NCBI GenBank assembly: GCA_023245155.1
Contig: JAHFKV010000001.1
Location: forward strand, 139,034-203,033
Reading direction: 5' to 3'
DNA length: 64,000 nucleotides
DNA from: Candidatus Staskawiczbacteria bacterium
Lineage (GTDB): Bacteria > Patescibacteriota > Minisyncoccia > Minisyncoccales > Staskawiczbacteraceae
Under the pieces are notes generated by a model that saw nothing but the letters and a program-made list of their open reading frames with translations, made no database searches and was not told the DNA's origin. Position 1 is the first letter of the stretch. Each line of letters opens with the position of its first letter. Positions 4,603 through 61,332 of the stretch are shown one piece after another. A program made the translations under genes and the position numbers.

Positions 4603-5073
4603 TTATCCTTCCATTTCACTCTTTTTAATTGCCATCCAAGCCACTACTGCCGCTATCACTCCTAACAATAACAGCACTGAATAGCCAGCAATATCGGTAA
4701 CGGAAGAGCTTTTCTGCATTCCCTGGCTACGCATAACATCTTGTTCGCAGGCCTTTTGGTAAGCCTTCGAATAATCCTGGAAATCCTGGCTATACTTGTT
4801 GATGGCACCTTGATCTGGAGCCGCCAATCCTTCTCCTGGGCCTATTCCCATAGGGGGCACCGATGGATATTGCGGAGCCATCAAACAAGAAGTGAATGTC
4901 ATAGCTGGTGGGCAATACTGCCCTGAACAGCCGCTTTCCCCATAACTGCCACTGGCAATTTTAACTAATGAAATGGCGAATTGCTGGCCAGACCAGCCCA
5001 TCAATCCAACTGCTACCATAAAAATAATCCAAAGGGCAATTAATCGCACTACTACACGAGGTTCTTTTGTCAT
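4603..5073 (-). CDS. hypothetical membrane protein
   Basis: 156-aa ORF with N- and C-terminal hydrophobic helices. No family recognised. Confidence 0.45.
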   Translation of the reverse strand: MTKEPRVVVRLIALWIIFMVAVGLMGWSGQQFAISLVKIASGSYGESGCSGQYCPPAMTFTSCLMAPQYPSVPPMGIGPGEGLAAPDQGAINKYSQDFQDYSKAYQKACEQDVMRSQGMQKSSSVTDIAGYSVLLLLGVIAAVVAWMAIKKSEMEG

Positions 5074-5116: not shown

Positions 5117-5199
5117 TGCCCGGGGTGGGACTCGAACCCACAAGACGTTACCGTCACAGGATTTTAAGTCCTGCGTGTATACCATTCCACCACCCGGGC
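5117..5199 (-). tRNA. tRNA-Leu(TAA), long variable arm
   Basis: Reverse complement gives acceptor gcccggg/cccgggc, anticodon stem cagga/tcctg with loop ctTAAaa, and T-loop ggttcgagtcc. Confidence 0.85.
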
Positions 5200-5208
5200 A
5201 TGATTTTT

Positions 5209-5280
5209 AAGCTACTTGAGGCCTGGGCGGGAATCGCACCCGCGTATAAGGGTTTTGCAGACCCTTGCATTACTACTTTG
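5209..5280 (-). tRNA. tRNA-Cys(GCA)
   Basis: Reverse complement gives acceptor ggcctgg/ccaggcc, anticodon stem agggt/accct with loop ctGCAaa, and T-arm gcgggtgcgattcccgc. Confidence 0.8.
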
Positions 5281-5295
5281 CTACCAGGCCACATC

Positions 5296-8000: not shown

Positions 8001-8083
8001 CGGAGGGCACAGGATTCGAACCTGCACGGGATTTCTCCCACTGGTTTTCGAAACCAGCGCATTAGCCGTTCTGCCAACCCTCC
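8001..8083 (-). tRNA. tRNA-Ser(CGA), long variable arm
   Basis: Reverse complement gives acceptor ggagggt/gccctcc, anticodon stem ctggt/accag with loop ttCGAaa, and T-loop ggttcgaatcc. Confidence 0.85.
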
Positions 8084-8098
8084 AAAATGTTAATAATG

Positions 8099-8170
8099 TG
8101 CCCCCATCAGGAATTGAACCCAAATTTTTCCCTTAGGACGGGAACGTTCTATCCGTTGAACTATGGAGGC
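8099..8170 (-). tRNA. tRNA-Arg(CCT)
   Basis: Reverse complement gives acceptor gcctcca/tgggggc, anticodon stem ttccc/gggaa with loop gtCCTaa, and T-loop ggttcaattcc. Confidence 0.8.
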
Positions 8171-11288: not shown

Positions 11289-11362
11289 TGGAGCGGGTAT
11301 GGGGAGTCGAACCCCACTCATTAGCTTGGAAAGCTAAGGTAATACCGATATACGATACCCGC
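11289..11362 (-). tRNA. tRNA-Gly(TCC), encoded CCA
   Basis: Reverse complement gives acceptor gcgggta/tacccgc, anticodon stem ttagc/gctaa with loop ttTCCaa, and T-loop ggttcgactcc. Confidence 0.85.
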
Positions 11363-11379
11363 TTGCAATATTCTTCTTG

Positions 11380-11450
11380 TCGGGGTACTCGGATTCGAAC
11401 CGAGATCAAACGGTCCCAAACCGTTCGTGCTACCGTTGCACCATACCCCG
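11380..11450 (-). tRNA. tRNA-Pro(TGG)
   Basis: Reverse complement gives acceptor cggggta/taccccg, anticodon stem aacgg/ccgtt with loop ttTGGga, and T-loop ggttcgaatcc. Confidence 0.85.
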
Positions 11451-11524
11451 ATATAAACATATACTATAAGAAAATCCCCGTCTTGTCAAAGGAAAAAATT
11501 TGTGATAATATTGAACTGAAATTC

Positions 11525-11596
11525 GCCCTCGTAGCTCAATGGATAGAGCTTCGCTCTTCTAAGGCGCAGATGTGGGTTCGATTCCTACCGAGGGCA
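11525..11596 (+). tRNA. tRNA-Arg(TCT)
   Basis: Acceptor gccctcg/cgagggc. Anticodon loop ctTCTaa. T-loop ggttcgattcc. Confidence 0.85.
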
Positions 11597-11616
11597 CAGG
11601 GAAGAATTTAAATTAT

Positions 11617-11692
11617 GGAGGCCGTAGTGTAGTGGCCAGCACAACGCTCTGTGGCAGCGTTAGCGGGAGTTCGAATCTCCTCGGTCTCCCCA
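11617..11692 (+). tRNA. tRNA-His(GTG) with encoded G-1 and CCA
   Basis: Extra 5' G opposite C73. Acceptor gaggccg/cggtctc. Anticodon stem acgct/agcgt with loop ctGTGgc. T-loop agttcgaatct. Confidence 0.85.
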
Positions 11693-16320: not shown

Positions 16321-18318
16321 CTACACCAAGAACGCCACAATCAACAATGCCACAATGTTCAAAACCTTAATCATTGGGTTAATCGCTGGACCAGCGGTGT
16401 CTTTATAAGGGTCGCCGACGGTGTCGCCGGTAACTGCTGCTTGGTGAGCAAAAGAACCTTTACCGCCATGGTTACCCTCTTCAATGTATTTCTTGGCATT
16501 GTCCCATGCAGCTCCGCCCGTAGTCATAGAAATTCCCACAAACAAACCAGTTACAATTGAGCCAATCAGCAATCCTCCCAAAGCCTGGACGCCCAAGAAG
16601 AATCCCACGAGCACCGGGGCTACCACGGTAATAATTACCGGCAACATCATTTCTTTCAAAGCAGCTTTGGTTACAATGTCCACACACTTGCCATATTCCG
16701 GTTTAGCCGTGCCTTCCATTAAACCTTTAATTTCTCTAAATTGTCTGCGCACTTCTTCCACTACCTTGCCGGCCGTTTTTCCAACCGCTCCCATCAAGAA
16801 GCTGGCAAACAAATATGGCAGCAATCCTCCAATCAACAAACCGGCAATGACCCTTGGATTGTCCAAAGCAAAATTGGCAGCGCTTGCCGATCCCGTCAGA
16901 TCAATGACTCTCTGGCTGTAAGCAGCAAACAGTACCAGGGCAGCTAATCCGGCTGAAGCAATGGCATAACCTTTGGTCACCGCTTTCGTGGTATTTCCCA
17001 CAGCATCCAAGGCGTCAGTAATTTTCCTGATGTCTTCGGGCATGCCAGACATTTCTGCAATTCCTCCGGCGTTGTCGGTGATGGGACCGAAAGCATCAAT
17101 ACCCACCACAATTCCTGAAAGCGAGAGCATCGCGGTAACCGCCAATGCCACACCGTAAATGCCAGCTAACCAGAAGGTGGTAATGGTTGCCGCTGCAATA
17201 AGTAAAACAGGTAAAGCAGTTGACTGCATACCCAAGCCAATGCCACGGATAATGTTGGTACCATGGCCAGTTTCTGAAGCTTGGGCAATTGAACGCACCG
17301 GGTTAAACTTTTTTGATGTGTAATATTCGGTAATGACGAACATGCCAACGGCAACCACTAAACCAACAATGGTTGAAAGATACAAATTCATTACAGAAAT
17401 GTCTTGCCCAGCCATCATATTGCTAATTAATGGATAAAATCCAATAGCTGACAAAACGACTGCCACTGCCAAACCCTTGTACATCGCCCCCATAATAGAC
17501 TTGTCTTTGCCAAGCCGTACAAAGAAACTGCCGATAATGGAAGTTAAAATAGAAACGCTGCCCAGCATCAATGGCAACAAGACAAACTGAATGGCGCGAG
17601 GGAAAAGCAGAGCTCCTAAAATCATGGTGGCTACCATGGTGACTGAGTAAGTTTCAAAAATATCAGCAGCCATGCCGGCATTGTCTCCCACCTCGTCTCC
17701 AATTAAGTCTGCAATCACAGCTGGATTTCTGGGATCATCTTCTGGAATAGACTTTTCTACTTTTCCAACCAAGTCAGCTCCCACATCAGCGGCTTTGGTG
17801 TAAATACCTCCGCCAACCCGGGCAAACATGGAAATCAAGCTGGCTCCAAATCCCAAACCAATTAGACCGCTCAAACCAGTCAAAAAGTAATATCCTGCAA
17901 CTGACAAAAGGCCCAAGCTCACTACCATCAAGCCGGTGATTAAACCGCCCTTAAATGACAAATCCAAGGCAAATGCCAAGCCCCTCTTGGCGCCTTCAGC
18001 CACGCGAGTGTTGGCCCGGGTTGAAACCCACATGCCAATAAATCCTGAAAGTCCGCTTAGCACCGCGCCGATTAAAAATCCAATGGCAATCTTCCAGCCC
18101 AAGACAATCCAGAGCAGCACCAACAACACGGCCGCAACAATTGCAACCGTTTTTGACTGGCGACTAAGGTAAGAAGCCGCTCCTTCTTGAATAGCGGCGG
18201 TAATAGCAACAGCCTTATCTTTAGCGGCAGGAGCTTTGCTGACCTGCATGACTAAAAAGATGACGAACGCAATTGCGAATAACGAAACGATGATGGGGAA
18301 ATAGGTGATGAGCATCAT
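16321..18318 (-). CDS. hppA: membrane-bound ion-translocating pyrophosphatase
   Basis: About 16 TM segments, with [28 protein letters not shown] and [11 protein letters not shown] motifs. Start moved to ATGATG at 18318, because the upstream GTG lies inside the repeated leader motif. Confidence 0.95.
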
Positions 18319-18421
18319 GAATTTTGAGCGAAGCGAGAAATTCACTTTGAAAATCAGGTTGAAATTTTAATAGAACGTATCTACTAGACCTGATTTTCAT
18401 TGCGACACATTACTTCGTTCG
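18319..18421 (-). promoter_or_regulatory. conserved leader motif, copy E2 (with hairpin insert)
   Basis: Gene orientation: CGAAGTAATGTGTCGCAATG-[gaaaatcaggt/acctgattttc hairpin]-AAAGTGAATTTCTCGCTTCGCTCAAAATTC-ATG. Confidence 0.6.
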
Positions 18422-19596: not shown

Positions 19597-20862
19597 TTAA
19601 TCAGTTTTTTCTTCGTTTTCTTCTTTCACTTTCTTCGTTTTCTTTTTTGGTTTTTCCTCACCAGCATCAGCCGTCTTTACCCCGTCAAATTGTTCCGCAT
19701 CTTGCGGAACACCGCTTTCGGCGGATTTGACTGGGTGAATATCAATCTTCCAGCCCGTTAATTGAGCAGCTAAGCGCACATTTCTGCCTTCTTTTCCGAT
19801 GGCCAGACTTAACTGGTCTTCAACCACAAATACTTCCGCAGAATTGTTATCAGCAATTTCAACTTTGGTAGCTTTGGCCGGGCTCAAAGCATTAGCAATA
19901 TATTTTTGCGCATCTTCTTGCCACAAAATCACATCAATTTTTTCTCCGCCCAATTCATTAATAACTGCCATGATTCTGGTTCCGCGCTGGCCCACACAGC
20001 TGCCGATGGGGTCAATCCTGTCTTCAGTGCTGGCCACGGCCATTTTTGTCCGGTAACCTGGTTCGCGGGCAATTGATTTTATCACCACAACACCGCCGGC
20101 AATTTCTGGTACCTCTAATTCAAACAAGCGCGAAACTAATTTGGGGTAAGCGCGGCTCAACAAGACAGCCGAGCCCTTGGGGGTATCTTCCACCTTTAAA
20201 ATGTAAAACTTCAAGCGAGCGCCCTGCTTGTAAAATTCGCCGGGAATTTGCTCTTCCCGATTTAAAATGCCCAAGGTTTTGCCAATATCTACCAGCACGG
20301 TATTTCCCTCAACTCGTTGCACAATTCCGGAAATAATTTCCCCTTCTTTGCTTTTGTATTCAGAGGCAATCACACCTTTTTCCGCCTCCCGTATTTTTTG
20401 CAAAATCACCTGCTTGGCAGTTTGGGCGGCAATACGGCCGTAATCCTGCTTTGAAACCAAGGGAATTTCCAATTCTTCACCTAGTTTTATTTTTGGCGCG
20501 GCTTTTTTGGCCTCGTCAATCATGATGTGCTTTTCAGGATTGAAAACCACTTTTTTAGGTGCTTCTTCCCCTTCAATATGCCGGTCAAAATCTTCAGCCG
20601 GTACCAATTTCTGGGCTTTTAATTCTTCAATTTCTTCTTCGGTATACAGCATGCTTTCATCTACTACCAATTTTACCTGCCAAAACTGGGCGTCTCCTGA
20701 AACCTGATTAAACTTGGCTTTGATTTTTTGCCCTTTTTGGCCGTAGTCTTTTTTGTACGCGGTAGCCAAAGCGGCCTCAATGGTTTCTATAATTGATTCG
20801 GTTGAAATACCGCGGGTTTCTGCAATTTGCGCTAAGGCGCGTTGAAATGATTTAATGTCCAT
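19597..20862 (-). CDS. nusA: transcription termination/antitermination factor NusA
   Basis: N-terminal domain, S1-like domain and two KH domains (GSCVGQRGTRI, AIGKEGRNVRLA), plus a K/E-rich tail. Confidence 0.95.
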   Translation of the reverse strand: MDIKSFQRALAQIAETRGISTESIIETIEAALATAYKKDYGQKGQKIKAKFNQVSGDAQFWQVKLVVDESMLYTEEEIEELKAQKLVPAEDFDRHIEGEEAPKKVVFNPEKHIMIDEAKKAAPKIKLGEELEIPLVSKQDYGRIAAQTAKQVILQKIREAEKGVIASEYKSKEGEIISGIVQRVEGNTVLVDIGKTLGILNREEQIPGEFYKQGARLKFYILKVEDTPKGSAVLLSRAYPKLVSRLFELEVPEIAGGVVVIKSIAREPGYRTKMAVASTEDRIDPIGSCVGQRGTRIMAVINELGGEKIDVILWQEDAQKYIANALSPAKATKVEIADNNSAEVFVVEDQLSLAIGKEGRNVRLAAQLTGWKIDIHPVKSAESGVPQDAEQFDGVKTADAGEEKPKKKTKKVKEENEEKTD

Positions 20863-20914
20863 GAATTTGGAACGAAGTGAGAAGGTCGCGAGTTTGCGAC
20901 ACCTTATTCGTTAT
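20863..20914 (-). promoter_or_regulatory. conserved leader motif, copy E3
   Basis: Gene orientation: CGAATAAGGTGTCGCAAACTCGCGACCTTCTCACTTCGTTCCAAATTC-ATG(nusA). Confidence 0.6.
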
Positions 20915-34429: not shown

Positions 34430-35209
34430 ATGAAACCCAATAAACTCTTAGGCCAACATTTTTTAGTGGACAAGAAGGCACTAGCTAAGATTGTAGCCGC
34501 TGCTAACATCCAAAAGGACGAAACGGTTTTAGAAATTGGACCAGGCACGGGACTTCTCACCAAAGAATTGGCCGCCAGAGCCCAAAAAGTGATTACGATT
34601 GAAAAAGACCCATCCATGGTACATATTCTCAAAGAGACCTTAGGCAATTTTGAAAATGTAGAGATTATTCAGGGCGATGCGTTAAGTTATCAAGTTATAA
34701 AGTTATCAAGTTATAAAGTTGTTGCAAATATTCCCTACTATATTACCGCACCCATTATTAGGAAGTTTTTGGAAGAAAAAGATAAGCCTGCTGAAATGGT
34801 GCTCATGGTGCAAAAAGAGGTGGCCCAGCGCATTTGTGCCAAGCCTCCCGATATGAGCATCTTGGCCGTTTCGGTACAATTTTACGCAACTTGCAAAATT
34901 ATTTCGCGCGTATCAAAAGGATGTTTTTGGCCGGTTCCCAAGGTTGATTCTGCTATTATAAAAATTGTGCCGCAGATAACTGTGGATAACCAGGGGATTA
35001 ACCGGGACGCATTTTTCAGGGTGGTAAAGGCTGGTTTTCTACACCCCCGCAAAAAAATAATCGGCAATTTGCGCGAGGGGCTTAAAATACATAAAGAACA
35101 AATCACGTCCTGGCTTATTGATAACAAAATTGATCCGGGCAGGCGGGCAGAGACATTAACTCTTCAAGAATGGGCCTCCTTGACAAGAGGACTTGATATG
35201 ATAACATAG
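34430..35209 (+). CDS. rsmA: 16S rRNA (adenine1518/1519-N6)-dimethyltransferase
   Basis: LGQHFLVD, VLEIGPGTGLLT and NIPYYITAP motifs. Confidence 0.9.
   Translation: MKPNKLLGQHFLVDKKALAKIVAAANIQKDETVLEIGPGTGLLTKELAARAQKVITIEKDPSMVHILKETLGNFENVEIIQGDALSYQVIKLSSYKVVANIPYYITAPIIRKFLEEKDKPAEMVLMVQKEVAQRICAKPPDMSILAVSVQFYATCKIISRVSKGCFWPVPKVDSAIIKIVPQITVDNQGINRDAFFRVVKAGFLHPRKKIIGNLREGLKIHKEQITSWLIDNKIDPGRRAETLTLQEWASLTRGLDMIT
34684..34720 (+). repeat. in-frame tandem repeat (2.3 x 16 nt aagttatcaagttata) inside rsmA, related to the 59961/60357 inverted repeats
   Basis: aagttatcaagttata|aagttatcaagttata|aagtt encodes LSYQVIKLSSYKVV. It shares perfect 15- and 17-nt blocks with the left repeat at 59961-59995. 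Confidence 0.8.
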
Positions 35210-35757: not shown

Positions 35758-38721
35758 ATGCACAACTTTTTAAGGAATATGCCAAAGAAAAAGATATTGC
35801 TCGCTACACTTTTACTGTTAAGCATGGTTGGTGTTTTTTTACCGAGCCCCAAGCCAGCTTCCGCAGAATTTTGTGGTGGTTTAGTGGGAGCAGCTCTTGG
35901 CAACCCCTGCTCGGAGGGTTATTTTTGTTCCGGACCGGTGGCGGGGGTTTGCCTGCCTAACCCATTGAGTTCTGCTACCTCTGCCATTAGCGAAGCAGCC
36001 ATTGATGCCGCGCTTGCCATATTAAAATACTTGGCGTTCATACCGCTTTTTATCACGGGGATCTTAGATTTTATAGCAGGAACTGCATTATTGTGGGTTA
36101 TCAGGATATCTGACGTAGTATCGTTTACCCACAACTCGGCTGTGAATATAGGTTGGCCCATTGCAAGGGATTTTGCCAACATCCTTATTGTCCTGGGATT
36201 CATCGCCATAGCCGTAGCCACTATTTTGCGTTTTAAAGAATATGAAGCCAAAAGCCTTCTGGTTAAATTAATCGTCGCCGCGCTTTTGGTTAACTTCTCC
36301 CTCTTAATATGCGGCGTTATTATTGATGGGTCAAATATTATCATTAGAAACTTTTTGAGCATAGGAAGTGATAGCAGTATTGGCGGGCTTTTTGATTTTA
36401 GATTTTTTAATGCCGCAGTTGCATTGGTGAACAGTCCTGTAGACGCGGCACACGCCGTAGAATTTATGGCGAAGGTGATGGGTAACGTGTTTTACAATAT
36501 CATGTCTGCCATTGTGCTGGCCCTCTTTGCTTTCTTGTTTTTATTCAGGATTGTTGCGCTTTGGATGCTCGTTATTATGTCGCCGATTGCATTTATCTGT
36601 TACGTTTTTCCGGCCACCAAAGGGGTTTGGAATATGTGGTGGAGCAATTTCGTCCAGTGGTGCATCATAGGCATCCCCGGAGCTTTCTTCCTGTATATCG
36701 GAAGAGCGCTCATGGCAAGCATGAGCACAAACCCGCCAGTAACGCCGGTGCTTAATGAAATTTCCGCCGGGGCGGGGGTAAACCAAATTTTCAACGCCTT
36801 GAGCCCCTTTTTCACCATGCTCATCCCCGGACTATTTCTCATTATGGGCTTCCTATTTTCCCTGCAGGTTTCTGCCATGGGATCGGCGGTGGCAATCGGA
36901 TGGGCAAGAAAAGCTGGTGGCTACGCGAAGGCCGGGGCGGGGCGAACCGCAAAGTGGGCTGGCAACCGATCTGGCATAACCCAAGCGTGGGAACGAGCTA
37001 AAGTTTCAGGCGTGGGAGCATTAGAAGGCGCGGGAATCCTAACGGCTGGCAGTAAGGCAACCGCCGATAAAAAGAGGAAAGAAGAAGCTATTAAGCCGCA
37101 TGAAGACAGAATTGATAACATAAAAGACAATGCGGAAGTTGCAAGAATTGCAACCAGCGGCGCCACACCAGAAGAAAGGGCGGCGGCAGTAAAAGTATTG
37201 AATAAAAGAGGAGCGATAGATGCCATTGAAGATAAAAAACAGCGCGAAACAGCAGTGCAGGCCGCAACGGCGTATGTTTCCGCCGGCGAGCTTGCTAAAA
37301 CAGATCCCGAACAGGCTAGAAAAGATGAGAATAAGGTTGCCGATATTAAAAGGAGGCTTAAATTGGCCCACCCTGATTGGAACGAAGCAAAGCTCCAAAC
37401 AAAAGCTGAAGACCAGGCAGTTAGAGAGGCGTACGCAAGAATGGATACCAGCGACCTTGATAAGTTGCAAGAAGTTGACGCAATTGCAAAGTTTGGCAAC
37501 AAGTCTACCAGCGAAGCCGAGAGGTCTAAGATATTAGAAAGAGCCGTTAAAGAAGGCTGGGCTCATAGGCTTGAACAAGAGTACTCTAAGGAAGAAATTG
37601 TTGAGGCAGTTAATACTGCAGAAACCGATTATGGCTCCAATGTAAGGAAGGGTTATGAAAATTCAAATCCAGCAGCAGCCGCGGATAATAAGAAAACCGT
37701 GGCAGACATCCAAAAAGAGGGTGGTAAATTTGCCGACGAAAAAGAGGCTAAGAAAGAAGCGGTGAGAAGAAAAGTGAAGGGACTAACTCCGAGCAAGGCC
37801 GCCGATTTGTCTGAAAAAGTATTTGATGACGAGGAGTATGGACAAGTTATTTTTGATTCGCTTTCCAAAGGCCAAAAAGACAAAATAGAAAAAGACGGCA
37901 GCGCTCAACTGCAACAAAAAATTGATGAAATGAAAGAGCGGACGGGAAACGTTTTGGTTAAGAATGTCATGGCCGATGTTGATGCCATACCAGAAAATCT
38001 GACAAAAGCAGCCAACTCAGAAGAAATTAGTGATGCGGTTAAAAACGCGTCTCCGGAAATCCAAGAAAAACTTAAAGAAAAATTTATTCCAACGGCGGTT
38101 GACCCAGAAACCATCAAAGAAACAACCGTTACCAAAGAAGAAGCAGGAGCGCAAAAGGCAAAAAATATCAGCGTTCTGATACAAGAGAAATTCATGAGAA
38201 GCCAATATGATGATTATGATGCCGCGCTAGAAGCAAAGAACAAAAAAGACGAAGAAGATGGCTATCAGAAGTTGCCAAATCCTTCTGAGGGAGAAACGAG
38301 GCCAACCACGCCACAAGAGCAGGAAAAATTAAGGATTGAGAAACAAGACCCGAAGCTGCGCGATATGTTAAAAAAGTTGGCCGACCCAAAAACAGACGAA
38401 CAAGACAAGGAAAAAATACAGACTTTCCTAAACGAAGTTAACAACCTGCCTCACGCAAGCACGGAAAAAGAATTAGCAGCTAAAAAACAAGTTTTGACGG
38501 CCGCATCTTCGCGCCACGAACAGTTAGTGAAAGAAACAGAGAGGCTTCAGAAAAAAACATCCAAACCGCCAAAACCGGGTGAACCTGGAGCAGTCCGCGA
38601 AAAAGAATTGGCCGATTTGGAAGCCCGGGAAAAAGAAGTTTCAGAAAAACGCGAGCAGATGGTGAAATTAGAAAATGAAATAAAAGCGCTACAAGAAAAG
38701 TTACCAAAGCCCGAAAAGTAA
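35758..38721 (+). CDS. TrbL/VirB6-like polytopic membrane protein with ~590-aa charged C-terminal tail
   Basis: Signal/TM segment plus at least six hydrophobic helices in residues ~60-390. The remainder is a K/E/A-rich low-complexity or coiled-coil region. Located at the head of a VirB4-containing cluster. Confidence 0.55.
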   Translation: MHNFLRNMPKKKILLATLLLLSMVGVFLPSPKPASAEFCGGLVGAALGNPCSEGYFCSGPVAGVCLPNPLSSATSAISEAAIDAALAILKYLAFIPLFITGILDFIAGTALLWVIRISDVVSFTHNSAVNIGWPIARDFANILIVLGFIAIAVATILRFKEYEAKSLLVKLIVAALLVNFSLLICGVIIDGSNIIIRNFLSIGSDSSIGGLFDFRFFNAAVALVNSPVDAAHAVEFMAKVMGNVFYNIMSAIVLALFAFLFLFRIVALWMLVIMSPIAFICYVFPATKGVWNMWWSNFVQWCIIGIPGAFFLYIGRALMASMSTNPPVTPVLNEISAGAGVNQIFNALSPFFTMLIPGLFLIMGFLFSLQVSAMGSAVAIGWARKAGGYAKAGAGRTAKWAGNRSGITQAWERAKVSGVGALEGAGILTAGSKATADKKRKEEAIKPHEDRIDNIKDNAEVARIATSGATPEERAAAVKVLNKRGAIDAIEDKKQRETAVQAATAYVSAGELAKTDPEQARKDENKVADIKRRLKLAHPDWNEAKLQTKAEDQAVREAYARMDTSDLDKLQEVDAIAKFGNKSTSEAERSKILERAVKEGWAHRLEQEYSKEEIVEAVNTAETDYGSNVRKGYENSNPAAAADNKKTVADIQKEGGKFADEKEAKKEAVRRKVKGLTPSKAADLSEKVFDDEEYGQVIFDSLSKGQKDKIEKDGSAQLQQKIDEMKERTGNVLVKNVMADVDAIPENLTKAANSEEISDAVKNASPEIQEKLKEKFIPTAVDPETIKETTVTKEEAGAQKAKNISVLIQEKFMRSQYDDYDAALEAKNKKDEEDGYQKLPNPSEGETRPTTPQEQEKLRIEKQDPKLRDMLKKLADPKTDEQDKEKIQTFLNEVNNLPHASTEKELAAKKQVLTAASSRHEQLVKETERLQKKTSKPPKPGEPGAVREKELADLEAREKEVSEKREQMVKLENEIKALQEKLPKPEK

Positions 38722-51999: not shown

Positions 52000-52688
52000 G
52001 CTAAATTTGAATAAATATTTTGAATGGCGTCGTTTTCGTCGAGCGCCTCAAATAATTTCTGGGCTTTCTCGCGGGCCTTTTCGTCCACCGCAATTTCTTC
52101 TTTCGCAAACCAGCCGAGCGACGAGCCGACTATTCTCACCCCTTTTTCTTCCAGGGATTTTTTAACCGTTTCCAAGTCTTCAGGTTTAGTGTAAACAAAT
52201 TCGCCACGGATATCATCTGCCCCGGCTTCAATGGCAGCCTCTTCAATGGTCTGGCCTTTTTCTGTTTCAATGCAACCCTTGCGTTCAAACATCCAGCGAA
52301 TAGCTCCTTCGCCGGCCATTTTGCCTTCATATTGGCCCAAAATTCCTTTTATTTCCCCCAGGGTCCGGTTCTTGTTGTCGGTAATGCCATCCATAATAAT
52401 AGCAATGCCTCCAGGGCCGAAACCCTCAAAAGAAACTTCTTCCAAATTTTCACCCACCAATTCACCGGTGCCCTTTTTAATAGCCCGTTCAATGTTTTCC
52501 TTGGGCATGTTAAACTCTTTGGCTTTTTCTATCAAACCCTTCAAGGTGGCGTTCACAGAAATATCTGCTCCCTTTTCTTTTACGGCAATCGTAATCACTC
52601 TTCCCATTTTGGAAAAGATTTTACCCTTTTTGGCATCGTTGGCATTTTTAGTGGCGGCAACTGTTTTGGCGTGACTATGACCTGACAT
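51996..52688 (-). CDS. yebC: YebC/PmpR-family transcriptional regulator
   Basis: MSGHSHAKTVAATKNANDAKKGKIFSK N-terminus is the family hallmark. Confidence 0.9.
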   Translation of the reverse strand: MSGHSHAKTVAATKNANDAKKGKIFSKMGRVITIAVKEKGADISVNATLKGLIEKAKEFNMPKENIERAIKKGTGELVGENLEEVSFEGFGPGGIAIIMDGITDNKNRTLGEIKGILGQYEGKMAGEGAIRWMFERKGCIETEKGQTIEEAAIEAGADDIRGEFVYTKPEDLETVKKSLEEKGVRIVGSSLGWFAKEEIAVDEKAREKAQKLFEALDENDAIQNIYSNLA

Positions 52689-52740
52689 GAATTTGGAACG
52701 AAGTGAGAAATTCGCAGCTATTGCGACACCTTACTTCGCT
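52689..52740 (-). promoter_or_regulatory. conserved leader motif, copy E4 (5' half overlaps the comEA stop region)
   Basis: Gene orientation: CGAAGTAAGGTGTCGCAATAGCTGCGAATTTCTCACTTCGTTCCAAATTC-ATG(yebC). Confidence 0.6.
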
Positions 52741-54219: not shown

Positions 54220-54280
54220 GGTTCACTTATTATGCTATGCTTAAGATATTGAGTTTATTGCCCTTATAGTACCATAAAAA

Positions 54281-54407
54281 CAGCTGTGGAGTTGGAGGCC
54301 TTATATGGGCTTTCCTTAGTAATGGATAATCTTGCTCCGGCTCGATTATTCCTCAGGAAAACCTTTACTTGTATCCCAGATACAACGCGCCTCCAACTCC
54401 ACAGCTG
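54281..54407. repeat. 127-bp element with perfect 18-bp terminal inverted repeats (long-loop palindrome / MITE-like or terminator)
   Basis: cagctgtggagttggagg (54281-54298) and its exact reverse complement (54390-54407) enclose 91 nt. T-runs follow on both strands. Confidence 0.7.
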
Positions 54408-54425
54408 TTTTTTCGTATTTGAAAA

Positions 54426-59131: not shown

Positions 59132-59962
59132 ATGCCAGAATTACCCGAGGTTCAGACTACGGTAAACGGTTTGCAAAAAAGGGTCCTTGGCAGGACCTTT
59201 GTTCGTGTGTGGTCAGATTGGCAGAAGACAGTTACATTCCCCAGAAAATTTGCTGCATTTAAAAAACAGCTCAAAGGTAAGAAAATTCTACGGGTTTGGC
59301 GACGGGGTAAAAATGTGATTTTTGAATTGTCGGATGGATATTCTTTGTTAATTCATATGAAAATGACTGGGCATTTGCTGGTTGAGCCCTGGAATACACA
59401 AGATCCCATGAATGGCTATTTGCATATAATGTTCTTCCTGGATGATGGTCGTAAAATTGCCCTGTCTGATTTGCGCAAGTTCGCCAAAGTTGAATTACGG
59501 CCAACGAAAGAGCTGCTGCAAATCTTTGAGGGACTGGGGCCAGAGCCCTTAGAAAAAATTTTTACGTTTGAAAAATTTGAAAAATTATTTGTAAGAAAAA
59601 AGGGGAAGGTAAAAGAAATTATTATGCGGCCAAGTTTTATTGCGGGTATCGGCAACATTTATGCTTCCGAAGCTTTGTGGTGGGCAAAGATTCATCCAGC
59701 TAAAGATGTTTCGCGTTTGAATGCTCGGGAATTAAAACTATTATACGGCGCGATAAAAAAAGTATTACAACTGGGCATTAACTTTGGCGGTGACAGTTTT
59801 TCGGATTACCGGGACGTGGATGGCAATAAGGGAGAGTTTGAGGGTTCTAAAAAAGTCTATCAACGCGAAGGTGAAAAGTGTTTTCGGTGCAAGTCAGTCA
59901 TTAAAAGATTGGTTATTGCGCAGCGCAGTTCGTTTTATTGCCCGCGGTGTCAGAGGCTATAG
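59132..59962 (+). CDS. mutM: formamidopyrimidine-DNA glycosylase
   Basis: MPELPEVQT N-terminus, H2TH region, and C-terminal zinc finger CFRC...CPRCQ. Confidence 0.9.
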   Translation: MPELPEVQTTVNGLQKRVLGRTFVRVWSDWQKTVTFPRKFAAFKKQLKGKKILRVWRRGKNVIFELSDGYSLLIHMKMTGHLLVEPWNTQDPMNGYLHIMFFLDDGRKIALSDLRKFAKVELRPTKELLQIFEGLGPEPLEKIFTFEKFEKLFVRKKGKVKEIIMRPSFIAGIGNIYASEALWWAKIHPAKDVSRLNARELKLLYGAIKKVLQLGINFGGDSFSDYRDVDGNKGEFEGSKKVYQREGEKCFRCKSVIKRLVIAQRSSFYCPRCQRL

Positions 59963-59995
59963 TTATCAAGTTATAATGTTATAAAGTTATCAAGT
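59961..59995 (+). repeat. left arm of 35-bp imperfect inverted repeat flanking the four-helix-bundle gene
   Basis: agttatcaagttataatgttataaagttatcaagt matches the reverse complement of 60357-60391 at 30 of 35 positions. Confidence 0.85.
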
Positions 59996-59997
59996 CG

Positions 59998-60342
59998 GTG
60001 AAAATTGAAAAATTTGAAGAATTAATATGTTGGCAGAAAAGCAAAGAACTGTCCTTGCTGATGTATGGGTTATTTAAGAATAACAGAGATTTTAGTTTCT
60101 GTGATCAGATTAAGCGCGCAGTTGTGAGCGTTATGAATAATATAGCTGAAGGATTTGAGCGCCAAACCAACAAGGAGTTTACTCAATTTTTATATATTGC
60201 AAAAGGATCTTGTGGTGAGGCGAGATCGATGTGCTACATAGCACTGGAATTGGGATACATTTCGAAAGAGGATTTTGAAAAAGTAAATAGATTATCCCTC
60301 GATACAGCTAGATTAATTTCAGGCCTAATTAAGGTTTTATAG
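59998..60342 (+). CDS. four-helix-bundle protein (23S rRNA intervening-sequence protein family)
   Basis: FEELICWQKSKELSLLMY...IKRAVVSVMNNIAEGFERQTNKEFTQFLYIAKGSCGEARSMCYIALELGYI is the family signature. GTG start. Confidence 0.85.
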   Translation: MKIEKFEELICWQKSKELSLLMYGLFKNNRDFSFCDQIKRAVVSVMNNIAEGFERQTNKEFTQFLYIAKGSCGEARSMCYIALELGYISKEDFEKVNRLSLDTARLISGLIKVL

Positions 60343-60356
60343 AGCTTTCTTTTAGA

Positions 60357-60391
60357 ACTTGATAACATTAGAACTTGATAACTTTATAACT
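60357..60391 (-). repeat. right arm of the inverted repeat
   Basis: acttgataacattagaacttgataactttataact. Ends 5 nt before the holA start. Confidence 0.85.
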
Positions 60392-60396
60392 TCGTT

Positions 60397-61332
60397 ATGA
60401 TTATATTTCTATACGGGCCGGATTCCTATCGGTCCAAACAAAAATTAGATGAAATAATCAGTCACTATAAAGAGTCCGGGAAAAGCGGCTTGAATTTAAT
60501 TTCTGTTGATGCCAAGGAAAACGCTTTCCCTGATTTTTACGATACCCTTAGGGTTTCCTCCATGTTTGCTGAAAAAAAATTGGTTATTATAAAAAATGTG
60601 TTTGCCGGTAAGGGTTTTCAGGAGGAATTATTGGAAGAGATTAAAAACATAGAAAATTTAAAGGATGTGGTGGTTGTTTATGAAACCGAAGCGCCCGATC
60701 AGCGCTTAAAAATTTTTAAAACTCTCGTAAAAACCTGCAAATGCCAGGAATTTGCCCTATTAGAGGGGTCGGCTTTAAAGCAATGGGCTCAAAAAGAATT
60801 TGAACGTCTTGGGCAAAAATCCAATCTTGATGCCGCAGATCTTTTAGTGCAGTATGTGGGCAATGATTTGTGGCGTCTTGCGGCTGAAATAAAAAAATTG
60901 GGAAATTTTAAAAATGGAGCAACAATCAAAAAAGAAGATGTGTTGCTCATGGTAAAACCGCGCCTTGAAGTGGATATTTTTAAAACTATTGACGCTATGG
61001 CGGCAAAAAACAGACCACAAGCCCTTTCGTTGGTAAAAAAACATTTAGACAATGGCGAAGCGCCCCTGTATATTTTGAGTATGATTGCTTACCAGTATAA
61101 AAATTTACTGGTGGTAAAAGAATTGGCTCAAAAAGGATTTATGTATGCTTCTATTGTGAAAAAAAGCGGCCTGCACCCTTTTGTGGTTAAAAAAACGTAC
61201 TTTGCCTCAAGCCAGTTTTCACTTGAAGAGCTCAAAATTGCTTATCATAATATTTTCCAAATGGATTTAGATATCAAAACAGGCAAGATTGATCAGGAGG
61301 CAGCCTTGGAATTATTGGTCTCAAGCATCTAA
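60397..61332 (+). CDS. holA: DNA polymerase III delta subunit
   Basis: 311 aa with the MIIFLYGPDSYRSKQKLDEI start and a delta-like C-terminal helical domain. Confidence 0.8.
   Translation: MIIFLYGPDSYRSKQKLDEIISHYKESGKSGLNLISVDAKENAFPDFYDTLRVSSMFAEKKLVIIKNVFAGKGFQEELLEEIKNIENLKDVVVVYETEAPDQRLKIFKTLVKTCKCQEFALLEGSALKQWAQKEFERLGQKSNLDAADLLVQYVGNDLWRLAAEIKKLGNFKNGATIKKEDVLLMVKPRLEVDIFKTIDAMAAKNRPQALSLVKKHLDNGEAPLYILSMIAYQYKNLLVVKELAQKGFMYASIVKKSGLHPFVVKKTYFASSQFSLEELKIAYHNIFQMDLDIKTGKIDQEAALELLVSSI

Follow-up and report, generated by a model that had tools for sequence, protein, structure and literature searches.

An in-frame tandem repeat in the rsmA gene of a Staskawiczbacteria genome shares its units with the inverted arms of a four-helix-bundle cassette

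Rickettsia palindromic elements (RPEs) are selfish repeats that lie in frame within unrelated genes, at sites compatible with the protein fold, and give rise to a recurrent peptide (PMC10969869). The 23S rRNA intervening sequence (IVS) of Coxiella carries an open reading frame (ORF) for S23p in a stem that is cut by RNase III, and tandem heptamers upstream of it (GACAGAT) vary in copy number between strains (PMC4990558). In bacteria of the candidate phyla radiation (CPR), PF05635 ORFs are also found in rRNA insertions (bioRxiv 10.1101/2024.02.27.582315). Here we analyzed a 64,000-nucleotide stretch of the genome of a Candidatus Staskawiczbacteria bacterium (Patescibacteriota; GenBank assembly GCA_023245155.1, contig JAHFKV010000001.1, positions 139,034 to 203,033; hereafter, the window), in which the rsmA (ksgA) gene contains a perfect in-frame tandem array. 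[quoted passage not shown] Our best reading is that the rsmA repeat is a coding-region instance of the short tandem repeat with an AAAGT core from which the inverted arms of 4HB cassettes are made.

The array occupies positions 34684 to 34720 on the forward strand, and its 37 bases read AAGTTATC AAGTTATA AAGTTATC AAGTTATA AAGTT. Tandem Repeats Finder resolved it as 2.3 copies of a 16-nt unit with 100% matches or as 4.6 copies of an 8-nt unit (AAGTTATM) with 89% matches, which bears out a first-pass annotation of the window that had listed an in-frame 2.3-copy tandem repeat here. The period of 8 or 16 nt takes translation through each of the three frames of the repeat; a repeat of this kind has a single open frame, and that frame is open only when the third unit has a C (TTA TCA, not TTA TAA). 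In the rsmA frame it encodes L-S-Y-Q-V-I-K-L-S-S-Y-K-V (approximately residues 85 to 97; LSYQVIKLSSYKV), between the GDAL and ANIPYY motifs. The codons used include minor ones (ATA makes up 14% of the Ile codons, AAG 27% of those for Lys, and AGT 15% of those for Ser), and given the codon usage of the window, the probability of this DNA for this peptide is 10^-7.2. Because of these atypical codons and this low probability, we consider the DNA repeat to be primary and the loop peptide to be secondary. The 3′ end of the array runs into the conserved codons TAT AAA GTT GTT (Y-K-V-V; positions 34710 to 34723, forward strand), a putative seed or homology anchor that contains TATAAAGT, the commonest 8-nt unit of cassette arms. 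That the Y-K-V codons of RsmA (TAT AAA GTT) make up one repeat unit had gone unremarked in the first-pass annotation.

The host gene (positions 34430 to 35209, forward strand) is an intact ORF of 259 amino acids (aa) that belongs to the RsmA family of 16S rRNA adenine dimethyltransferases (TIGR00755; 255.6 bits against a cutoff of 171, covering residues 1 to 253) and matches PF00398 with an E value of 1.3e-58; its closest solved relative is B. subtilis KsgA (6ifs; E value, 4e-50). All class I methyltransferase motifs—EIGPGTG, IEKD, GDAL, and NIPYY—are intact. Among 50 homologs, N100, P102, and Y104 are invariant and Y95 and K96 are conserved at 90% or more, and the motif YK[VIL][VI]AN was found in most of 120 homologs. 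An AlphaFold2 model (50 homologs) had a mean predicted local distance difference test score (pLDDT) of 92.5 and the expected strand order. The same 259-aa protein is present on four long contigs (0.2 to 1 Mb) from NCBI and ENA, and the enzyme is most likely fully functional.

Secondary structure assignment by DSSP on this model placed strands at residues 77 to 81 and 95 to 100 and a loop at residues 82 to 94, and the array covers the bulk of that loop and the first three residues of the second strand, beta4. Among homologs, this connector between beta3 (GDAL) and beta4 (NIPYY) of the Rossmann fold is free to vary in sequence and length. Over the compared stretch the loop has 28 residues, against 25 to 52 in 120 homologs, and it is 8 residues shorter than the loop of B. 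subtilis KsgA. From the loop length, the position in the model, and the codon counts of orthologs, it follows, in line with the first-pass annotation, that the array is a replacement of loop sequence and not an insertion. Taken by itself, the array is a modest curiosity: it looks like a piece of a dispersed repeat that keeps the frame and is tolerated because the loop is variable.

The 4HB cassette lies between mutM (fpg; positions 59132 to 59962; PF01149, PF06831, and PF06827) and holA (DNA polymerase III delta; positions 60397 to 61332; PF06144 and PF21694), both on the forward strand. Its left arm (positions 59960 to 59995, forward strand) reads TAGTTATC AAGTTATA ATGTTATA AAGTTATC AAGT, and the start of this arm overlaps the mutM stop codon TAG (59960 to 59962), with the arm unit AGTTATCA beginning at the last two bases of mutM. 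The 4HB gene (positions 59998 to 60342, forward strand) begins with GTG and encodes 114 aa that fall in PF05635 (E value, 6.6e-32; 110.3 bits against a cutoff of 33.8) and TIGR02436 (103.4 bits against a cutoff of 24). The right arm (positions 60351 to 60392, minus strand) has the reverse complement AAGTTATA AAGTTATC AAGTTCTA ATGTTATC AAGTTCTA and ends 4 nt before the ATG of holA. Over 36 nt the arms are 86% complementary, and both the minimum free energy and the centroid folds predicted an RNA stem of about 35 bp around the ORF (z = -3.45). In relatives whose MutM is 71 to 75% identical (L203/L204 and L206), mutM and holA overlap by ATGA with no spacer (L203, 10780 to 10870; L206, 10834 to 10924). 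The window cassette is therefore an insertion, of about 434 nt and exactly at the ATGA overlap, with a possible 2- to 3-nt duplication (TAT). At the same junction, L205 (2500 to 3000) has an unrelated 400-nt insert that encodes a 77-aa hydrophobic protein and has AGCTTGT-like repeats at its start. Rfam had no family for the arms or the rsmA array, and only tRNAs were matched in the window.

The array shares exact blocks with both arms: 16 nt (AGTTATCAAGTTATAA) and 18 nt (GTTATAAAGTTATCAAGT; positions 59978 to 59995) with the left arm and 21 nt (AAGTTATAAAGTTATCAAGTT) with the right arm, where positions 34692 to 34712 are the reverse complement of positions 60372 to 60392. The blocks of 15 and 17 nt previously reported for the left arm are thus real, although understated, and the right-arm block is additional to them. 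The array and the left arm also have the same start (AGTTATCAAGTT) and similar lengths (36 versus 35 nt), and over 45 nt they are 87% identical. When 3 or fewer mismatches were allowed, the 16-mer had 10 matches in the window, where 0.9 would be expected and none of 100 shuffles gave more than 3, so the similarity of rsmA and the arms exceeds chance for random sequence, as had been proposed. All 10 matches lie within the rsmA array, positions 59960 to 59991 (forward strand), or positions 60353 to 60392 (minus strand), and the array and the two arms make up the top direct and inverted repeat families of the window. A further similarity beyond the array (7 of 9 nt; GTTGCAAAT versus GGTGAAAAT) was judged post hoc and is probably due to chance.

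A metagenome scan with the 4HB protein returned 467 relatives, and the best 80 loci (L123 to L202; 54 to 66% identity) were analyzed, with core statistics drawn from the 71 cassettes that had full flanks. On the sense strand upstream, [AC]AAGT cores occurred at 4.5 per 100 nt against a background of 0.3 (approximately 15-fold enrichment), and downstream of the 4HB genes, ACTT[TG] cores occurred at 4.0 per 100 nt, also against 0.3. The architecture is strand specific and shared by nearly all of these loci, with four to five [AC]AAGT cores at a 7- to 9-nt spacing upstream and the reverse complement downstream; spacings of 7, 8, and 9 nt were found in 87, 32, and 88 cases, and at least three cores were present on both sides in 51 of the 71 loci. 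Among the 8-nt arm units, 24 of 74 were TATAAAGT, while the commonest 9-nt units were TTGT-, TTAT-, TCAT-, and CTGT-AAAGT and the commonest 7-nt units were TG-, CG-, and TA-AAAGT. The 18-mer pattern of the rsmA array was carried by approximately 5% of cassettes. Cassettes fill the spacer between co-directional genes, and none was seen inside a gene: the upstream ORF ended a median of 50 nt before the 4HB start (55 of 62 loci), and the downstream ORF started a median of 45 nt after the 4HB stop (50 of 62 loci). The left arm often provides the stop codon of the upstream gene (the window, L012, and L097). We rejected the idea of a universal arm sequence, as other, more distant 4HB subfamilies have similarly designed arms made of unrelated units (AGCTTGT, CTTGACCTTGTT, and ATCCTTT). 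Searches of the open-access literature turned up neither a description of AAAGT-repeat arms nor one of 4HB cassettes in places other than rRNA or diversity-generating retroelements (DGRs).

A pattern scan for GTTATMAAGTTATMAAGT over one genome per species found at least 117 loci in many phyla. Among the matches listed, 109 of the 117 lay outside long ORFs; some loci were short-loop hairpins or solo arrays. Only four of the listed loci flanked a 4HB gene, even with an iterative hidden Markov model search, one of them in Brumimicrobium (Bacteroidota), and the proposal that all octamer arrays adjoin 4HB genes was dropped. The rsmA gene was next to none of the 80 cassettes or the 117 array loci among the matches listed. 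A derivation of the arms from rsmA was likewise rejected, because cassettes of Bacteroidota and other phyla (L057 Brumimicrobium, L012, L087, and L097), and the 80 metagenomic cassettes as well, have the same arm units at their sides. In Candidatus Staskawiczbacteria JAHFKW01, ORF-less hairpins (L031, 556 to 623 and 1337 to 1395; L047, 143 to 194) consist of two inverted arrays with a 2- to 3-nt loop and stand between a stop codon and the next ATG. The hairpin at L031 1337 to 1395 has both termini of the window cassette (TAGTTATCAAGTT ... TTATAACTTCG), and the others share its right terminus; these hairpins look like derivatives of the cassette of the kind of MITEs (miniature transposable elements with inverted repeats). 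A very long solo array of 23 consecutive AAAGT cores (L196, 1955 to 2141; units GTCTATAAAGTC, GTCCATAAAGTC, and GTCAAAAGTC) has a cassette at a distance of about 1 kb, and the GTC-type units of the array are also those of the arms of that cassette.

In-frame arrays ending in (S)YKV were also recovered from other housekeeping genes of other CPR genomes, all on the minus strand: MiaA (L101, 4447 to 5481), a PrmC-like methyltransferase (L047, 4416 to 5168), an Asp/Glu racemase (L080, 5115 to 5891), and a Mur ligase (L086, 3598 to 5004). The MiaA array (GTGKDKDSYKVIKLKSYKVIPYHLID; SYKVIKLKSYKV) is a 7-aa insertion relative to solved MiaA structures, and the PrmC-like array (ELKVIKLSSYKVLDMFAGSG) encodes KVIKLSSYKV just ahead of motif I. 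Both run into an apparent beta-strand that opens with (Y)KV, and the peptide SYKVIKL(S/K)SYKV recurs in RsmA, MiaA, and the PrmC-like methyltransferase.

Array-like loops are present in three rsmA orthologs with 61 to 69% identity (L001, L003, and L004), with periods that differ from that of rsmA, while a fourth ortholog, L005, has no array in its loop. The syntenic ortholog L001 (61% identity) has the same number of loop codons and identical ends (AGTTATCAAGTT ... TCAAGTTATAAAGT), sharing 12 and 14 nt of the array ends. Its five differences all fall in the central 9 nt (TCAAGTTCA versus ATAAAGTTA), and all five complete the perfect repeat on the window side. Cores in the L001 loop are spaced at 7/9/8 nt, and over 20 nt this loop is matched by a hairpin arm from a related Staskawiczbacteria genome. 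In L003 and L004 the loop consists of 9-nt units, (NNT AAA GTT)x4, that encode YKV-PKV-CKV-YKV and YKV-HKV-SKV-YKV, respectively. Each of these three loops matches arrays of other genomes exactly over 20 to 25 nt (for L001 and L003, in element arms), and on each ortholog contig the rsmA loop is the sole core array. In a neighbor-joining tree built without the loop, the four array-bearing RsmAs did not form a clade, and the P0002 and P0003 RsmAs are 74% identical, yet P0003 lacks an array. From this we conclude that the data suggest recurrent overwriting of the loop among RsmAs. According to the first-pass annotation, orthologs with the same loop and no tie to cassettes would speak against a link between the two; L001 does have nearly the same loop, on contigs too short to reveal its cassette status.

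We put the chances at about even that the rsmA loop was overwritten at the DNA level by repeat units, including by exchange with the cassette arms. The conserved Y-K-V codons, by themselves one repeat unit, would serve as an anchor, and further units would then overwrite the rest of the loop starting from it, by slipped-strand or template-switch copying within the rsmA locus or, in the source genome, by short-tract templated exchange with the cassette arms. Selection would keep only those outcomes that preserve the frame, the loop length, and the absence of stops; this filter would force the C variant in TTA TCA, where TTA TAA would terminate, and the encoded peptide SYQVIKLSSYKV would be a passenger of the DNA repeat. 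We infer the copying mechanism and the direction of exchange against a directly observed background: the anatomy and frame of the array, its position in the fold, the arm architecture, the cassette polymorphism, the recurrence in other genes, and the closer match to its own arms. A templated patch is favored because the 8/16-nt period is perfect without a change in loop length and each slippage step would shift the frame, and gene conversion (templated copying), one of the possibilities raised in the first-pass annotation, is a viable explanation. The array had a longest common block of 9.9 nt on average (maximum, 16 nt) with the arms of the 80 other cassettes, and none reached the 21 nt shared with its own arm. 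Of 13 solo arrays at other loci, 8 had their best match in their own cassette's arms (rank 4 or better of 79), so that arrays within one genome tend to share variants, and the C variant TATCAAGT is rare, being found in 3 of the 80 cassettes.

Several observations weigh against exchange with the arms. Matches of 20 to 25 nt between unrelated arrays are common (e.g., the L003 loop and the L168 arm, 25 nt), and since arrays draw on a small repertoire of units, the long match of rsmA to its own arms is partly combinatorial. The result that no other cassette matches as well may reflect lineage and not exchange within the source genome; the C variant also occurs in hairpin elements of a related Staskawiczbacteria genome, and the C positions in rsmA are independently needed to avoid stop codons. 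Ordinary duplication at the level of codons accounts in full for the L003 and L004 loops, with no cassette needed. Shared tracts of 12 to 21 nt are short for RecA-dependent conversion, no conversion event was observed directly, the RsmA tree carries no support values, and the comparison of arrays within the source genome covers the 64-kb window, with the remaining approximately 660 kb of the genome outside it.

Coincidence combined with local slippage is a serious rival, one that we regard as possible, if rather unlikely. It would have the YKV codons duplicated in tandem by local slippage in a tolerant loop, with no exchange and only a coincidental resemblance to the arms; loop and arms would be alike only as AT-rich arrays grown from the same common 8- to 9-nt unit. 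YKV is near universal in these RsmAs, and because its conserved codons are themselves a repeat unit, and indeed contain the commonest arm unit, there is less coincidence to explain. Tandem duplications of other sequences are common in the loop among the 120 homologs (e.g., KIKNYKIKNYKVV and SNFKFQISNYKVV), and the L003 and L004 loops are clean codon-level repeats whose 9-nt in-frame units are one-step neighbors of TAT. The combinatorial origin of 20- to 25-nt matches among unrelated arrays, the occurrence of the 18-mer pattern in some 5% of cassettes, and the requirement for C in an open rsmA frame are all as local slippage would have it. However, an 8/16-nt period cannot be reached by frame-preserving steps, and yet the repeat is perfect in a loop of unaltered length. 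Local slippage also has against it the mixed 7/9/8 spacing of L001 and its 20-nt match to the hairpin arm of a related genome, the failure of all 80 other cassettes to match rsmA as well as its own arms do, and the peptide VIKLSSYKV, encoded by an out-of-frame array, in an unrelated methyltransferase of a related genome.

A footprint or solo arm, as suggested in the first-pass annotation, seems improbable. In that scenario a cassette or an ORF-less hairpin once sat in the rsmA loop and was lost, leaving one arm in frame. The left-arm-like start (AGTTATCAAGTT) and length of the array, the 87% identity over 45 nt, and the ORF-less hairpins with cassette termini in a relative are consistent with such an event, as is the mobility of the cassette, which follows from the empty sites in relatives. 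However, there is no inverted partner of the array within 3 kb (the only complements in the window are the two cassette arms), and the loop is no longer than in orthologs. Array-like loops occur in three orthologs at 61 to 69% identity, and the ends shared with the 61%-identity ortholog would make the event ancient, yet the repeat is perfect. All cassettes seen are at gene junctions, no simple mechanism would remove one inverted arm, and among the 80 cassettes and the 117 listed array loci, the rsmA site was occupied by an element in none. The companion suggestion of a preferred target sequence is likewise not supported: cassettes lie between co-directional genes, the empty site is an ATGA overlap, and rsmA is absent from the approximately 200 cassettes and listed array loci. 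Overall, the earlier interpretation stands for the nonrandom similarity, the replacement, and possible conversion and falls for the footprint and the target. In our best reading, by comparison, the rsmA array has no role in the cassette and is neither an excision scar nor an insertion site.

A functional array appears still less probable. It has been considered in two versions: trans RNA pairing of rsmA mRNA with the 3′ arm of the cassette, which would link rsmA expression to processing of the cassette transcript, and a slippage frameshift switch (a contingency locus). The predicted duplex of the rsmA array with the right arm has an energy of -35.3 kcal/mol compared with -34.6 kcal/mol for the left and right arms of the cassette itself, while random 55-nt windows gave a median of -10 and a best value of -26.2 kcal/mol. 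In addition, rsmA and the cassette are co-stranded. For the switch, the unit (8 or 16 nt) is not divisible by 3, and the gain or loss of one unit would shift the frame. Against these points, pairing in cis with the left arm would be expected to occupy the right arm, ortholog arrays use different units with no conserved pairing partner evident, 4.6 copies are few for efficient phase variation, and four assemblies all encode the same intact protein. Although short low-complexity repeats can mislead assemblers, an artefact in which arm reads were misjoined into rsmA is most unlikely, because four long contigs of different origin encode the same protein, the repeat leaves the ORF uninterrupted, the loop has a normal length, the fold is modeled with confidence, and orthologs from independent metagenomes have the same array ends.

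The wider interest of the locus is its context, namely, the AAAGT arm architecture shared across phyla, the insertion polymorphism and ORF-less derivatives of the cassette, and the recurrent in-frame arrays; our searches of the literature turned up no account of this context. We tentatively propose, while holding it less probable than not, a joint reading in which arrays with an AAAGT core make up a class of repeats that propagates in CPR/Patescibacteria and in several further phyla. Such arrays would form the arms of mobile 4HB cassettes and of their ORF-less hairpin derivatives; templated copying anchored at K-V codons (AAA GTT) would repeatedly overwrite surface loops of RsmA, MiaA, PrmC-like, MurI-like, and Mur ligase proteins with frame and length kept; and the rsmA array would be a recent conversion product of the cassette arms. 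A further possibility within this reading is that rsmA mRNA pairs with the 3′ arm no less well than the 5′ arm of the cassette does. If the link is true, loops of essential, universally conserved enzymes can be rewritten by the repeat of a small mobile cassette while the enzymes stay intact; if it is not real, the array is simply a tandem repeat of the ordinary kind in the coding sequence of a variable loop. The cassette arms, the junction polymorphism, and the ORF-less derivatives offer a handle on the long-unexplained 23S-IVS/S23p family, and these features suggest hypotheses about repeat recognition by a pentameric 4HB protein, RNase III processing, and the mode of mobility.

Other features of the window were noted in passing. 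Downstream of rsmA, positions 35758 to approximately 45000 encode a 987-aa TrbL-like membrane protein and PrgI-like, TraC-like, and VirB4-like (DUF87/AAA_10) proteins, labeled with the precomputed Pfam labels of the matching ENA contig; together they make up a module of the type IV secretion or conjugation kind. The relative L004 keeps the same gene order, with the LysM/M23 peptidase gene followed by rsmA and then by this module. A perfect 24-nt inverted repeat (AAAAACAGCTGTGGAGTTGGAGGC; positions 54276 to 54299 and 54389 to 54412) with an 89-nt loop is followed by a run of T, is apparently noncoding, and matches nothing in Rfam; it may represent a structured RNA of small size or else an elaborate terminator. 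Three minus-strand genes have a conserved motif of approximately 30 nt (positions 18316 to 18345, 20860 to 20889, and 52686 to 52715; reverse complement ...TTCTCACTTCGTTCCAAATTCATG) upstream of and including the ATG, preceded in two of the three by a small hairpin (GGTGTCGCAA..GCGAC), and this motif may be a shared leader or a module of promoter and ribosome-binding site. A total of fifteen tRNA genes occur in the 64 kb on both strands, several of them in tight clusters (positions 1881 to 2335, 5117 to 5290, 8001 to 8170, and 11292 to 11689).

In comparison with known systems, the 4HB cassette belongs to the same protein family as Avd of DGRs. No DGR reverse transcriptase (RT) was found in the 64-kb window in a phmmer search with the DGR-type RT of L143, and among 55 related cassettes with long flanks, such an RT stood beside one (L143). 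We rejected DGR involvement in the window for want of an RT, and nothing links rsmA to retrohoming. A DGR context for a 4HB gene with AAAGT arms was noted at L143 (3001 to 5047), with L201 (upstream of 771) listed beside it. In L143 the 4HB gene has on one side the end of a variable gene of the C-type-lectin/FGE-like kind (..GFSVRCVRD) and on the other an Asn-rich region that resembles a template and is fused upstream of the DGR-type RT (IGNLTSQ and YVDD; PF00078), and the RT gene holds an antisense core array (4672 to 4698). In L042, an RT is found 3.6 kb from an array.

The window cassette has the same cargo as the 23S rRNA IVSs of Coxiella, Leptospira, and Xanthomonas, a PF05635 ORF within an inverted-repeat stem, but it lies between mutM and holA instead of in rRNA and has AAAGT-core arms, so that it is not an IVS in the strict sense. 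Coding microsatellites and contingency loci resemble the rsmA array in being tandem repeats within an ORF whose unit is not a multiple of three (here 8 or 16 nt, in 4.6 or 2.3 copies), for which slippage is expected. They differ in that the copy number of the rsmA array is low, its host is a housekeeping gene and not a surface or restriction gene, and its units are shared with a dispersed repeat family; the four contigs that carry the gene encode an identical 259-aa protein. Like RPEs and intragenic MITEs (ERIC, BOX, and Correia), the rsmA array is a repeat in frame within a housekeeping gene with a recurrent peptide, although its occurrence in several unrelated genes is provided by other CPR genomes, outside the window. 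RPEs are palindromic units of approximately 150 bp that add length to the host protein, whereas the rsmA array comprises 37 nt of tandem 8-nt units in one orientation, is not palindromic, has no terminal inverted repeats or target duplication, and does not lengthen the loop. If its link to the cassette arms is true, the rsmA array would represent a CPR counterpart of the Rickettsia RPE phenomenon, brought about by replacement and not by insertion.

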